NCBI RefSeq assembly: GCF_055900595.2
Contig: NZ_CM148325.1
Direction: 5' to 3' (one strand)
Length of the DNA stretch: 64,000 bases
The first letter of the stretch is position 1. Every line of letters begins with the position of its first letter. A model generated the notes under the pieces. The model did no database searches, was not told where the DNA came from, and worked only from the letters and a program-made list of their open reading frames with translations. This document shows positions 10,070-63,896 of this stretch, one piece after another. The position numbers and the translations under genes are program-made.

Positions 10070-10120
10070 AAATAATGCCGGGCTTAAACCCGGCACCTAA
10101 CTTGTCGACGAAGTGCGTTT

Positions 10121-10238
10121 TGTTCATGCCGGATGCGGCGTGAACGCCTTATCCGGCCTACAAGATCGTGCAAATTCAATATATTGCATGAGCCATGTAG
10201 GCCTGATAAGCGTAGAGCATCAGGCAGTTTTGCGTTTG
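10121..10238. repeat. REP/BIME (RIP-like) element: two inverted REP palindromes flanking an AT-rich spacer
   Basis: GCCGGATGCGGCGTGAACGCCTTATCCGGCCTACA ... GTAGGCCTGATAAGCGTAGAGCATCAGGCA; near-identical copy at 41201..41318. Confidence 0.85.
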
Positions 10239-15753: not shown

Positions 15754-16709
15754 TGAAGCAACTTTGGTTTGCCATGTCATTAGTGACAGGTAGCCTGTTA
15801 TTCTCTGCTAACGCCTCGGCCACTCCCGCGTCCGGGGCGTTATTACAGCAGATGAACCTGGCCAGTCAGTCACTGAATTACGAGCTGTCATTCATCAGCA
15901 TCAATAAACAGGGTGTTGAGTCTCTGCGTTATCGACATGCACGCCTCGATAACCGTCCTCTTGCACAATTGTTGCAAATGGATGGCCCGCGCCGGGAAGT
16001 GGTACAGCGCGGCAATGAAATCAGCTACTTTGAACCGGGCCTTGAACCGTTCACGCTTAATGGCGATTACATTGTTGATTCTCTGCCATCGCTCATCTAT
16101 ACCGATTTCAAACGCCTTTCTCCTTACTACGACTTTATCTCCGTGGGACGCACGCGTATTGCTGATCGTCTTTGCGAAGTCATTCGCGTGGTGGCCCGTG
16201 ATGGCACACGCTACAGCTACATCGTGTGGATGGACACCGAATCGAAATTACCGATGCGGGTTGATCTCCTTGATCGCGATGGTGAAACGCTGGAACAATT
16301 TCGCGTGATTGCTTTTAACGTTAATCAGGATATCAGCAGCAGTATGCAGACGCTGGCGAAAGCAAATCTGCCGCCGCTGCTTTCTGTTCCTGTAGGTGAA
16401 AAAGCTAAATTCAGCTGGACGCCAACCTGGTTGCCACAGGGGTTTAGTGAAGTTTCCAGCAGCCGACGTCCGTTACCGACGATGGACAACATGCCTATCG
16501 AATCACGTCTCTATTCCGACGGATTATTCAGCTTCTCGGTAAACGTTAACCGCGCTACGCCATCGAGCACCGATCAGATGTTGCGCACCGGACGCAGAAC
16601 CGTCAGTACAAGCGTACGTGATAACGCCGAAATCACCATTGTCGGCGAACTGCCGCCGCAAACGGCGAAACGCATTGCCGAGAATATTAAGTTCGGGGCA
16701 GCGCAATGA
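15753..16709 (+). CDS. rseB: SigmaE regulatory protein RseB (periplasmic)
   Basis: 318 aa with signal peptide; operon position. Confidence 0.95.
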   Translation: MKQLWFAMSLVTGSLLFSANASATPASGALLQQMNLASQSLNYELSFISINKQGVESLRYRHARLDNRPLAQLLQMDGPRREVVQRGNEISYFEPGLEPFTLNGDYIVDSLPSLIYTDFKRLSPYYDFISVGRTRIADRLCEVIRVVARDGTRYSYIVWMDTESKLPMRVDLLDRDGETLEQFRVIAFNVNQDISSSMQTLAKANLPPLLSVPVGEKAKFSWTPTWLPQGFSEVSSSRRPLPTMDNMPIESRLYSDGLFSFSVNVNRATPSSTDQMLRTGRRTVSTSVRDNAEITIVGELPPQTAKRIAENIKFGAAQ

Positions 16710-17185
16710 TCAAAGAGTGGGCTACGGTCGTCTCCTGGCAAAACGGGCAGGCGCTGGTCAGTTGTGATGTTAAAGCCTCATGCAGCAGCTGTGCTTCCCG
16801 TGTCGGTTGCGGTAGCCGCGTGCTGAATAAACTTGGCCCACAAACCACGCATACCATTGTCGTACCCTGTGATGAACCGTTAGTACCGGGGCAAAAAGTG
16901 GAATTAGGAATCACCGAAGGCAGCCTGCTTAGCTCCGCATTACTGGTTTATATGTCGCCGTTGGTGGGATTATTCCTCATCGCTTCGTTATTTCAGCTAC
17001 TCTTTGCTTCAGATCTTGCAGCATTATGCGGTGCGATTCTCGGCGGCGTTGGTGGATTCCTGATTGCACGCAGCTACTCGCGAAAGTTTGCTGCCCGGGC
17101 AGAATGGCAACCGATCATCTTAAGCGTGGCATTGCCGCCAGGCCTTGTGCGATTTGAAACATCTTCGGAAGACGCGAGCCAGTGA
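16706..17185 (+). CDS. rseC: SigmaE regulatory protein RseC
   Basis: 159 aa membrane protein; 4-bp overlap with rseB. Confidence 0.92.
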   Translation: MIKEWATVVSWQNGQALVSCDVKASCSSCASRVGCGSRVLNKLGPQTTHTIVVPCDEPLVPGQKVELGITEGSLLSSALLVYMSPLVGLFLIASLFQLLFASDLAALCGAILGGVGGFLIARSYSRKFAARAEWQPIILSVALPPGLVRFETSSEDASQ

Positions 17186-17382
17186 TTTCACTGGCTTTGT
17201 TGCATTTTGCATAACAAATGCGAGGACGTTTCCAGATACCACAATCCATACCGTATGAACATTTCCTCGCCTCAATGTTGTAGTGTAGAATGCGGCGTTT
17301 CTATTAATACAGACGTTAAGCTCAGAACAGCGACTTCTAAAAGCCTGGTTAACCGGGCATTAAGGCACAATAATCATACTTT

Positions 17383-19182
<1,800 letters not shown>

Positions 19183-20220: not shown

Positions 20221-20414
20221 ATTTATGAGATAAATCCCCCGTGGCTAACGACATCCCCCGTCGTTGTGTATAGAATATTCCCCCGAAGTTTAAGGTTGGC
20301 ACCTCCAGGTTGCCACGGCACACGAAACAGCGTTGGTCCCCATATACCGGTAAACTGAAACTGCAGCGAAGCAGTTAGCAGAGCCATGTATATCAGGTCT
20401 GTTTCGTGTGCTGA

Positions 20415-22027
<1,613 letters not shown>

Positions 22028-24010: not shown

Positions 24011-24033
24011 AATAATACCGTTCTCTTTAAAAA

Positions 24034-24070
24034 GTAAAACCCCCGAACTGGTAAGGAACGGGGGTTTTAC
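24034..24070. terminator. Rho-independent terminator after acpS
   Basis: Hairpin AAAACCCCCG-n-CGGGGGTTTT followed by T-rich tract. Confidence 0.75.
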
Positions 24071-24429
24071 TTTACAACTTTAATTTTGTGCAGCACACGA
24101 TTCCAACAAAAATGATTATGGATCAATTTAGTTATCCTGTACAAGCAACTTGCAATCTTTAGCATAAAAACTCGAGCCTTTACGAAGAAATCGATATTGA
24201 TGAAAAGATTAACGTGACCGCTTTTTGATAAGTACATTAGAATCGGCGTCGTTATTGGATATTTTGCTGTGTTCTACGCCATGCCACTGAATTCCCCCAT
24301 TGAAACGAGTGGTGTCGTCAAAGCTCTGGTGTGGAGTGCGGCACTCGATTCCAATAACTCGCACGTTCAGTTTTGGGGAGATGTAAGGGCTAATCTGAAC
24401 GGCTGCATTCCTTGTTTAAGGAAAAACGA

Positions 24430-24703: not shown

Positions 24704-25000
<297 letters not shown>

Positions 25001-25129
25001 TTATACGCGCATTCTTTACTCAAACCAGTTTTTTCACCAACGCTTCACTATGACGAATACGTTCTGGTGCCAGCTCCAGATCCTGCTGAATCAGCGCAAT
25101 GAACAGTAAATCCGGGTAATGACTCCAAC

Positions 25130-25633
25130 TTATTGATAGTGTTTTATGTTCAGATAATGCCCGATGACTTTGTCATGCAGCTCCACCGATTTTGAGAACG
25201 ACAGCGACTTCCGTCCCAGCCGTGCCAGGTGCTGCCTCAGATTCAGGTTATGCCGCTCAATTCGCTGCGTATATCGCTTGCTGATTACGTGCAGCTTTCC
25301 CTTCAGGCGGGATTCATACAGCGGCCAGCCATCCGTCATCCATATCACCACGTCAAAGGGTGACAGCAGGCTCATAAGACGCCCCAGCGTCGCCATAGTG
25401 CGTTCACCGAATACGTGCGCAACAACCGTCTTCCGGAGCCTGTCATACGCGTAAAACAGCCAGCGCTGGCGCGATTTAGCCCCGACATAGCCCCACTGTT
25501 CGTCCATTTCCGCGCAGACGATGACGTCACTGCCCGGCTGTATGCGCGAGGTTACCGACTGCGGCCTGAGTTTTTTAAGTGACGTAAAATCGTGTTGAGG
25601 CCAACGCCCATAATGCGGGCAGTTGCCCGGCAT
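25130..25633 (-). CDS. insB: IS1 InsB (C-terminal part of InsAB' transposase, made by -1 frameshift)
   Basis: 167-aa ORF overlapping insA in the -1 frame; typical IS1 organisation. Confidence 0.95.
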
Positions 25634-25827
25634 CCAACGCCATTCATGGCCATATCAATGATTTTCTGGTGCGTACCGGGTTGAGAAGCGGTGTAAGTGA
25701 ACTGCAGTTGCCATGTTTTACGGCAGTGAGAGCAGAGATAGCGCTGATGTCCGGCGGTGCTTTTGCCGTTACGCACCACCCCGTCAGTAGCTGAACAGGA
25801 GGGACAGCTGATAGAAACAGAAGCCAC
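25552..25827 (-). CDS. insA: IS1 InsA (transposition inhibitor / N-terminal part of InsAB' transposase)
   Basis: 91 aa, [37 protein letters not shown]... zinc-finger motif. Confidence 0.97.
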
Positions 25828-25877
25828 TGGAGCACCTCAAAAACACCATCATACACTAAATCAGTAAGTTGGCAGCA

Positions 25878-26645
25878 TCACCGTAAATCCGTTAACATTC
25901 CCTGAGCGTGACAAGCAGAGATTGCAGCACTGTTTGTCGCTTGTTCTTCGGCAATGGTATACAGGCAATGAGAAGCACGCTGTTGCAGGGCATTGGGAGT
26001 AAAGCCGGTAATCGCCAGCACTTTTCCGCCCACTCGCAGCATCTCATCTGCCGCCAGGTTTAACTCGCGTCGTACACCGGTGTAGGAAATGGCTAATAAC
26101 AGATCGTCAGGGGACGACGCCTGTACTGTAGCGAGTAGCGCATGCATATCGCGCACTGCGGCAGCATTGAAGCCAATCTTCATCAGCTTCCAGGCAAAGT
26201 TTTGCGCCACCAGACCCGAAGCGCCAATACCGGTCAGAATTATCCGCCGTGCAGAGCGCAACATTGTTACGCATTCATGCAGTTTCTCTTCACTATTAAC
26301 ATTTAGCGTTGCGTACATAGCGGCAGTATTTTCTTTAATCAGTTTTTCGCCGACCAGCCGTAACGGATCATCACCGCGGATTTGGTTATGAATGGGCACG
26401 GAGGGAGATTCCGGCTGGCTTGCCAGCGCTTCACTCAACGCCAACTTAAGTGCCGGAAAACCTTTATAGCCGAGTTTTTGCGCGAACTTCACGACGCTGG
26501 ACTGACTGACTCCGGCTTCGTTGGCCAGTTGCTGAGAGCTTAAATGGCGCGCCGTATCAGGTTGTAGCAGCAGATAGTCCGCCAGTTTTTTATCACTCTG
26601 GGCAAGCCCCTGGTAACGCTGACGGATACGAAGTAAGCCGTTCAT
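25878..26645 (-). pseudogene. yfhH: RpiR/MurR-family regulator YfhH (HTH + SIS domain), 3' end interrupted by IS1: native last 28 codons replaced by a single Arg codon plus stop inside the IS1 end
   Basis: Reading frame runs from Met at 26645 into the IS1 terminus; the displaced native 3' remnant (25020..25105) lies on the other side of IS1 in the same frame. Confidence 0.8.
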
Positions 26646-26853
26646 ATCTTTCCTCGCGATGAAATAGTGGCGACAACAGGCAATATGAGACAAACGCGGG
26701 TGAATTTTATATTCCATTGCCGCTAATTGCCATGAATTAAAAATTCCAGTTAGCCATGATGCGGTCGATTGTTGCCGGAAAAGTGATGATCTATCTGTTA
26801 GGCTATGTAGTAGCGAAAATTAATCAGGATGTTTCAGTCCAGAGGAGTATGGT

Positions 26854-27489
26854 TTGGCAACTCACGAGCGTCGTGTGGTGTTTTTTGACTTAGATGGAAC
26901 ATTGCATCAGCAGGATATGTTCGGCAGTTTTATGCGTTATTTACTGCGTCGCCAACCGCTGAATGCATTACTTGTCCTGCCGTTGTTGCCGGTCATTGCC
27001 ATCGCGTTATTGATAAAAGGTCGTGCAGCACGATGGCCGATGAGTCTGCTTCTTTGGGGATGCACTTTTGGTCACAGTGAAGCGCGTTTACAGGCGTTGC
27101 AGGCCGATTTTGTGCACTGGTTTCGCGACAATGTTACCGCTTTTCCGCTTGTCCAGGAGCGTTTGACTACCTACCTGTTAAGTTCCGATGCGGATATTTG
27201 GTTGATCACAGGCTCTCCGCAGCCGCTGGTTGAAGCGGTTTATTATGATACGCCCTGGTTGCCGCGGGTTAATCTTATTGCCAGTCAGATCCAGCGGGGT
27301 TATGGCGGTTGGATATTGACGATGCGTTGTCTGGGACATGAAAAGGTCGCACAACTGGAGCGCAAAATTGGCACGCCGCTGCGGCTGTACAGTGGCTATA
27401 GCGACAGTAATCAGGACAACCCGCTGCTTTATTTCTGCCAGCATCGCTGGCGGGTAACCCCGCGTGGTGAACTCCAGCAACTGGAATAG
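26854..27489 (+). CDS. pgpC: Phosphatidylglycerophosphatase C (HAD-like), PgpC/YfhB
   Basis: 211 aa; HAD motif I FFDLDGTL; synteny. Confidence 0.88.
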   Translation: MATHERRVVFFDLDGTLHQQDMFGSFMRYLLRRQPLNALLVLPLLPVIAIALLIKGRAARWPMSLLLWGCTFGHSEARLQALQADFVHWFRDNVTAFPLVQERLTTYLLSSDADIWLITGSPQPLVEAVYYDTPWLPRVNLIASQIQRGYGGWILTMRCLGHEKVAQLERKIGTPLRLYSGYSDSNQDNPLLYFCQHRWRVTPRGELQQLE

Positions 27490-34082: not shown

Positions 34083-34268
34083 AGTGGCTCATTCACCGAC
34101 TTATGTCAGCCCCTTCGGGACGTGCTACATAAAATTCGAATGACGCACAACAAGGTGCCTGCCGTCCAACTTCTGATATCAGCTTAGCTATATCAACCCT
34201 CGGGCGAAACGTCGAGTTAGGCACCGCCTTATTCCATAACAAAGCCGGGTTATTCCCGGCTTTGTTGT
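34083..34268 (+). ncRNA. glmY: Small RNA GlmY (controls GlmZ/glmS via RapZ)
   Basis: Sequence recognised (AGUGGCUCAUUCACCGACUUAUGUCAGCCCCUUCGGGAC...); ends in terminator AAAGCCGGG-n-CCCGGCUUUGUUGU; lies between purL and glrK. Confidence 0.85.
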
Positions 34269-41168: not shown

Positions 41169-41200
41169 GCGAAACGGTGATTTGCTGACAATGTGCTCGT

Positions 41201-41318
41201 TGTTCATGCCGGATGCGGCGTGAACGCCTTATCCGGCCTACAAATTATTGCAAATTCAAGATATTGCAATCTCCGTGTAGGCCTGATAAGCGTAGCGCAT
41301 CAGGCAATTTTTCGTTTG
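41201..41318. repeat. REP/BIME (RIP-like) element, near-identical copy of the one at 10121..10238
   Basis: Same two inverted REP palindromes around an AT-rich spacer. Confidence 0.85.
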
Positions 41319-63655: not shown

Positions 63656-63896
63656 TTTAACCGTCCTGTTTCGTGTTGCATCTGCGTTGACTGTACATAC
63701 TCACTCCGGTCACTTACTTATGTAAGCTCCCGGAGATTCGTAAGTTTGTCAACTTGCTGAAACCCGAAACAGTTAGGTTAAAGATAACAAGATATTAGAA
63801 TCAGGCCGGGGCGTCTCGCGCTCCGTAAACACGGTCGTACATCCAGCCGGTAGCCTGGTTCCTTGCATTGAGTGATGTACGGAGTTTATAGAGCAA

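Follow-up and report, generated by a model that had tools for sequence, protein, structure and literature searches.

What is left of a bacterial regulator when an insertion sequence takes over the end of its gene? The question is raised by yfhH in a 64,000-nucleotide stretch of contig NZ_CM148325.1 (RefSeq assembly GCF_055900595.2), called here the window, in which a copy of IS1 interrupts the gene between codons 254 and 255. With good confidence, we conclude that a single recent transposition has turned yfhH into a pseudogene, whose product is most likely misfolded, unstable or at best effector-blind. The components of the interrupted locus, listed in the direction in which yfhH is read, were located by sequence reading and by script:

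25878..26645, minus strand: disrupted yfhH open reading frame, 254 native codons followed by an Arg codon (cGG) and TGA, the last 5 nt being IS1
25883..25891: copy of the target-site duplication at the left IS1 end, CGGATTTAC on the minus strand (script)
25115..25882, minus strand: intact IS1A-type IS1 of 768 bp, oriented as yfhH is
25860..25882, minus strand: left terminal inverted repeat of IS1 (IRL), GGTGATGCTGCCAACTTACTGAT, source of the TGA stop
25552..25827, minus strand: insA, 91 aa (NCBIfam NF033558)
25130..25633, minus strand: insB' frame (NCBIfam NF033558)
25115..25137, minus strand: right terminal inverted repeat of IS1 (IRR)
25106..25114: copy of the target-site duplication at the right IS1 end (script)
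25020..25106, minus strand: orphaned 3' remnant of yfhH, codons 255-282 plus stop (29 codons), LFIALIQQDLELAPERIRHSEALVKKLV and stop, also supported by orthologue alignment

The insertion in yfhH is directly observed. Both 9-bp copies of CGGATTTAC are perfect and form a direct repeat. In the disrupted frame, the C of the Arg codon comes from the target and its GG from IS1, while the TGA stop consists of IS1 bases 3-5. Translation would thus stop five bases into IS1 and give YfhH(1-254) plus Arg, lacking residues 255-282, with the end ...AQGMLTDL, Arg and stop (...GMLTDLR). Because IS1 and one duplicate together measure 777 bp, or 259 codons, the tail is formally in frame with the head, from which it is kept apart by in-frame stops at codons 256 to 491. 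In silico deletion of IS1 and one duplicate yields a 282-aa YfhH that differs from RefSeq WP_001013779 at one residue, A241 versus S241. The initial annotation had proposed that IS1 replaces the C-terminal 28 residues of YfhH, with the displaced tail in frame beyond the element. The insertion anatomy and the restored 282-aa protein bear out the replacement; the tail is present and in frame as described, but its start at 25105 was placed one base short (25106..25020). Met 26645 as the start of yfhH matches the RefSeq annotation and the conserved orthologue N-terminus MN[CG]L. A 279-aa open reading frame from the upstream ATG at 26717 was rejected, being absent from the protein collection and preceded by sequence without coding conservation. 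As a separate observation, codon 241 (window 25923-25925) encodes Ala in this strain and in other genera, and Ser in most E. coli.

By its sequence, the IS1 copy at 25115-25882 is intact. It shows the features of the family: a length of about 768 bp, imperfect repeats of about 23 bp, a 9-bp duplication, and insA and insB' joined at an A6C motif. The IRL and IRR arms are 23 nt long and 78% complementary, and the IRL 23-mer occurs once in the window, where none is expected by chance. The A6C motif at 25576-25570 would direct the −1 frameshift that produces the 232-aa InsAB' transposase. On the IS1 transposase model NF033558, whose cut-off of 100 applies to the whole protein, the two open reading frames score 91 and 146 bits. 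Identity to the annotated IS1A-family copies in two other E. coli loci, L001 and L002, is 99.7-99.9%. In length, repeats, duplication, frameshift and identity, the element resembles the IS1A-type insertion mutations of E. coli and Shigella genes. Known mutations of this kind truncate the gene by a stop inside the end of the element, as here, and only the site differs. The yfhH::IS1 allele is an ordinary case of IS1 pseudogenisation, a new instance of a well-known kind.

What kind of protein has been cut? The restored YfhH contains Pfam HTH_6 at residues 1-77 (E=5e-30) and SIS at 128-258 (E=8e-32), and it scores 572 bits on the YfhH equivalog NCBIfam NF008590 (cut-off 355), which confirms its assignment as an RpiR-family regulator with HTH and SIS domains. 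Identity with MurR itself was considered and rejected, the MurR equivalog NF012026 giving 169 bits against a cut-off of 408; judged by these family models, YfhH is a paralogue of MurR. In published lists it appears as an RpiR-family factor that is uncharacterised, and in the literature searched no characterisation was found, in agreement with the earlier statement that its targets are uncharacterised. A yfhH::Kan mutant is viable and the gene is non-essential.

Does the lost tail matter? The initial annotation left this point open and suggested a comparison with intact orthologues. In 15 orthologues with 80-85% identity, from Citrobacter, Salmonella, Enterobacter, Lelliottia, Scandinavium and Pluralibacter, the tail reads LLF[MIV][AG]L[VI]QQDLExAP[ED]RIRHSE[AE]LVKKL[VI] and is nearly invariant; none of the 15 ends near residue 254 or at ...TDLR. 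Natural ends at ...TDLR or a variable tail would both have spoken against a damaging truncation. Instead, the tail is conserved in every orthologue aligned and nearly invariant across at least eight genera, and its pattern is kept in distant homologues. Among full-length homologues with 24-42% identity, 78 of 79 continue for 26-35 residues beyond the cut. The copy of YfhH in the window is accordingly a truncated one and not an intact member of the family, its allele ending at 254 plus Arg without the full-length C-terminal helices found in family members. The cut splits the best-conserved C-terminal motif, D253-L-L-F256, in which D253 is found in 74, L255 in 62 and F/Y256 in 77 of the 79 homologues. 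Further along the homologue tails, hydrophobic residues occupy positions 259, 271, 277, 278 and 281, and 60 of 78 sequences have Ser or Thr at position 274. The lost tail very probably matters, and loss of function is therefore likely, judging from conservation and homology.

The structural comparison points the same way. The cut at 254 falls inside the Pfam SIS model, since the model extends to residue 258. An AlphaFold model of YfhH built on the homologue alignment (mean pLDDT 94) ends in two helices, a long one of 24 residues at 239-262 and the terminal one at 266-279, so that residues 255-282 comprise the last eight residues, one third, of the former and the whole of the latter. The SIS domain of this model superposes on the ligand-binding domain of MurR (7EN5/7EN7) with a TM score of 0.96 and an rmsd of 1.4 A. 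MurR (YfeT), the MurNAc-6-P-responsive repressor of murQP in E. coli (7EN5/7EN6/7EN7), shares with YfhH the HTH_6 and SIS domains and 34% full-length identity. Each MurNAc-6-P ligand in MurR is touched by three subunits, and S277 and T281 of helix alpha8, contributed by the neighbouring monomer B, contact it (PMC9177960); these residues align with YfhH S274 and V278. Of the eight direct ligand-contact residues of MurR, five are identical in YfhH (S143, K156, H168, S187 and Y188), T189 and R192 are conservative replacements, and A142 corresponds to a backbone contact. The one residue at which the restored protein departs from most E. coli, position 241, aligns with MurR S244, which makes a van der Waals contact to the lactyl group of MurNAc-6-P. 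A second group of relatives, the Pseudomonas RpiR-family regulators RccR and HexR (PDB 8JU9/8K3B), matches the YfhH fold over the full length (Foldseek E=1e-19). In the RccR tetramer, the dimer interface includes alpha14, and alpha15 at the C-terminus shuts the effector pocket (PMC11014249); these two helices are the counterpart of the part that IS1 removes from YfhH. RccR differs from YfhH in its effector (KDPG) and regulon, and identity between the two is 24%. A term search of a preprint on S. pneumoniae NanR found nothing on the C-terminal helices.

The initial annotation had asked whether the tail contributes to dimerisation, and the model superposition, read together with MurR and RccR, places the lost helices at the interface and the pocket. 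By analogy with these closest solved relatives, the long SIS helix of YfhH would pack in the subunit interface and the terminal helix would close the pocket of the neighbouring subunit, and IS1 would remove one third of the first and all of the second. One transposition, specific to this strain, that placed an intact IS1 after codon 254 and made the usual 9-bp duplication would then suffice to make yfhH a pseudogene through the loss of both helix parts. The suggestion that the regulator may be inactive or altered is thus supported by the conservation of the tail and the structures of its relatives.

Could the shortened protein nevertheless work? It is possible, though unlikely, that truncated YfhH is still made and binds DNA through its HTH domain, and that the allele is not a null but yields a repressor that is constitutive and blind to its effector, or a regulator with part of its activity; it would be deaf to its phosphosugar effector because the pocket-closing terminal helix is gone. 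The truncated protein retains its HTH domain (HTH_6, 1-77) and, since the Pfam SIS model ends at residue 258 and the native sequence at 254, about 95% of that model; the alpha8 contribution to the pocket comes from the neighbouring subunit. The MurR T1 construct, which ends at N266 (YfhH position 263), is still a tetramer in crystals. Furthermore, a Q262* allele persists in other E. coli, so that the cell at least tolerates a YfhH without its last helix. However, IS1 cuts nine residues deeper than the T1 construct ends, and the lost L255, F256, L259 and I260 form a conserved hydrophobic face of the long helix, whose RccR counterpart sits in the dimer interface. Removal of buried helix residues usually destabilises a domain, which counts against a working remnant. 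We keep to the view that yfhH is most likely a pseudogene here.

Damage to yfhH is not confined to this strain. The Q262* allele (CAG-to-TAG) encodes 261 aa, lacks only the terminal helix and was found in two other E. coli loci (L012, 1896-2681, and L013). A 7-bp deletion splits the gene into open reading frames of 132 aa and 155 aa (L009-L011, 2627-3468), in the contigs that carry the 155-aa fragment named by NCBI from Shigella sonnei. The 282-aa form is by far the commonest, with a cluster of 2,818 members. Such recurrent damage fits a dispensable gene.

The insertion might also have acted on the gene downstream of yfhH, for which two features are relevant:

24704..24964, minus strand: yfhL, 2[4Fe-4S] ferredoxin, 86 aa, the downstream neighbour of yfhH
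25000..25005, minus strand: perfect TATAAT, the likely −10 element of a yfhL promoter, assigned from alignment

The yfhL start codon follows IS1 at a distance of 150 bp, the element breaks any read-through from yfhH, and other E. coli carry independent IS1 copies just downstream of yfhL. These observations could speak for selection of the insertion not for the loss of YfhH but for its effect on the neighbour, through a polar effect on yfhL or through transcripts that start in IS1 and run into yfhL. We regard this as very improbable. The spacer with its TATAAT lies downstream of IS1 and is therefore retained, and PMC2984482 cites promoter activity for the yfhL 5' region; the promoter scan found no promoter-like site reading from IRR toward yfhL, and an allele as rare as this one bears no mark of having been selected. 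The 55-nt yfhH-yfhL spacer (24965-25019) has about 93% mean identity over five genera, with an invariant GCGTATAATGCCCGCCC. The standard promoter and terminator scan found no yfhL promoter, missing it because its −35 element is weak, and the conserved TATAAT emerged only from the alignment. Although transcripts from the yfhH promoter would no longer reach yfhL, the ferredoxin gene probably keeps its own conserved promoter and loses only the read-through.

Two side observations concern this stretch. The spacer is more conserved than the coding sequence that flanks it, which suggests a constrained promoter or 5' leader of the ferredoxin gene. The independent IS1A copies just downstream of yfhL lie at 3045-3812 in L001 and at 2939-3706 in L002, where the insertion extends the annotated yfhL to 91 aa, and the yfhH-yfhL-shoB stretch seems to be a collector of IS1 insertions.

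How old and how widespread is the insertion? Window positions 26000-50000 are 100.0% identical to eight E. coli chromosomes, among them E400634 (Kenya, human stool), and the closest genomes form a small E. coli clade with 99.96-100% identity, consisting of E400634 and about seven other RefSeq genomes. An origin of the window in Shigella was considered and given up in view of this identity. Over its first 50 kb the window aligns with E400634 in two gap-free blocks with 2 and 10 mismatches (99.96-99.99% identity), and IS1 with one duplicate is the only indel. The IS1-excised sequence matches the empty site of E400634, which has a single CGGATTTAC, without gaps and with 3 mismatches in 5,223 nt. 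A 91-nt probe across the yfhH-IS1 junction was found in one piece in none of 5,426 complete E. coli genomes. Six top matches listed as "100% covered" were discarded as joining artefacts, each being an intact yfhH with an unrelated IS1 downstream of yfhL or in the yfhL-shoB spacer. The exact 255-aa product was found on one Logan contig, from one short-read run (SRR27886137), which ends 24 nt into IRL and has a yfhH-IRL junction identical to that of the window. Many E. coli carry several copies of IS1 (median 10 places per genome), and an assembly may put a repeat in the wrong place, but a collapsed or misplaced repeat is scarcely credible here, given a perfect 9-bp duplication around a complete element, flanks that rejoin seamlessly to the empty site and the same junction in an independent run. 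The insertion in yfhH is real and limited to a very narrow lineage, and it is recent because the closest genomes lack it. The 40-mer GGAATGTTAACGGATTTACGGTGATGCTGCCAACTTACTG could serve as a sequence tag of the allele, which may be of use as a lineage marker or as a natural knock-out for studies of YfhH.

The insertion itself is of little import. What may interest the specialist is its context: what does YfhH regulate, and does E. coli still possess it? The region on the other side of the yfhH start contains the following:

26702..26715, minus strand: candidate YfhH operator box GGAATATAAAATTC, overlapping the −10 of promoter-like sites on both strands, with a putative function
26734..26747, minus strand: candidate YfhH operator box GGAATTTTTAATTC, 32 bp from the GGAATATAAAATTC box, likewise putative
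26775..26853, plus strand: 3'-terminal remnant of a PTS EIIBC gene that has been deleted, directly upstream of pgpC, recognised by alignment with Lelliottia
26854..27489, plus strand: pgpC (yfhB), the divergent neighbour of yfhH

In Salmonella, Citrobacter amalonaticus, Enterobacter kobei and Lelliottia (L016-L018 and L023), the yfhH orthologue is divergent, across about 115 nt, from a true murQ. The murQ genes beside yfhH orthologues score 413-426 bits on TIGR00274 (cut-off 302), and the PTS EIIBC gene that follows has MurP as its best family. In Lelliottia, pgpC directly continues the series, murQ, PTS gene and pgpC following one another on the same strand at distances of 13 and 3 nt. A YfhH homologue with 42% identity is also followed by a murQ-like gene. 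One further locus, P0034 (L021), was left out of the inference, its assembly being fragmented by frameshifts. No yfhH-linked murQ was found in complete E. coli genomes, which contain only the yfeU-type murQ, located elsewhere; this gene and the Salmonella murQ adjacent to yfhH have 66% DNA identity and 56% protein identity. The 40 nt at 26775-26814 match the end of the PTS gene of Lelliottia, on its 3' side, with 90% identity, and a 148-nt alignment of the E. coli spacer into pgpC with Lelliottia has E=2e-16. On this comparison the region at 26775 is a deletion scar: since the PTS 3' remnant is kept in E. coli, about 2.2 kb has been lost between yfhH and pgpC in the Escherichia lineage. A literature search on STM2570-2572 found no paper linking yfhH with murQ.

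A 45-aa open reading frame at 26756-26893 (MMRSIVAGKVMIYLLGYVVAK...) spans the scar and overlaps the start of pgpC. It was rejected as a gene and looks like a fusion of leftover codons from the start of murQ and the end of the PTS gene.

The yfhH-proximal 100 nt of the yfhH-pgpC spacer are conserved and contain both palindromes. In the 64 kb, GGAAT-N5-ATTC matches only the GGAATATAAAATTC and GGAATTTTTAATTC boxes, and the same pair is present in the orthologous loci. Both candidate boxes overlap divergent promoter-like sites, and the candidate operator now lies 107 nt upstream of pgpC. We propose that YfhH is a MurR-like, phosphosugar-responsive repressor. Its orthologues in other genera are divergent from a murQ-PTS operon, just as murR lies beside its own murQ-PTS genes. 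Unlike MurR, YfhH belongs to a separate family (NF008590), its effector and DNA site are only predicted, and in E. coli it has no adjacent murQ-PTS genes. More tentatively, at what we judge a little under an even chance, the E. coli protein may be an orphaned repressor of the MurNAc-6-P type: it looks orphaned because the ancestral divergent murQ-PTS(-pgpC) operon (~2.2 kb) appears to have been deleted. The deletion would have left the promoter, the two GGAAT-N5-ATTC boxes and the last PTS codons directly before pgpC. If YfhH represses through both boxes, its loss to IS1 would derepress the divergent promoter, now in front of pgpC, as well as the yfhH promoter.

Should the orphan reading be true, YfhH in E. 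coli would control only itself and possibly pgpC(-tadA), and the IS1 knock-out would derepress pgpC. The IS1 insertion, Q262* and the frameshift behind the Shigella sonnei fragment would mark stages, one following another, in the decay of a regulator deprived of its operon. Through the comparative synteny, a protein that E. coli lists give as "function unknown" gains its first hypothesis that is concrete and open to test, naming a probable effector class (MurNAc-6-P-like phosphosugars), an operator (two boxes 32 bp apart) and a target (pgpC). Both neighbours, pgpC and yfhL, had been suggested for expression tests in a strain with restored yfhH; pgpC would be the better candidate for altered expression, because yfhL probably keeps a conserved promoter downstream of IS1.

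Elsewhere in the window, five RNA features lie above the Rfam gathering thresholds (AsrC, rncO, ohsC, GlmY and the iscRS element), as expected for a chromosomal region. The Rfam RNA features are found at:

16670-17501
20285-20499
24031-24107
34083-34230
63785-63894

Finally, a repeat of about 119 bp, with 89% identity between its copies, is present at 10120-10238 and 41200-41318. It is probably a dispersed intergenic repeat, and its first copy (10120-10238) overlaps a match to Rfam ES036 (CssrF) at 10162-10204.
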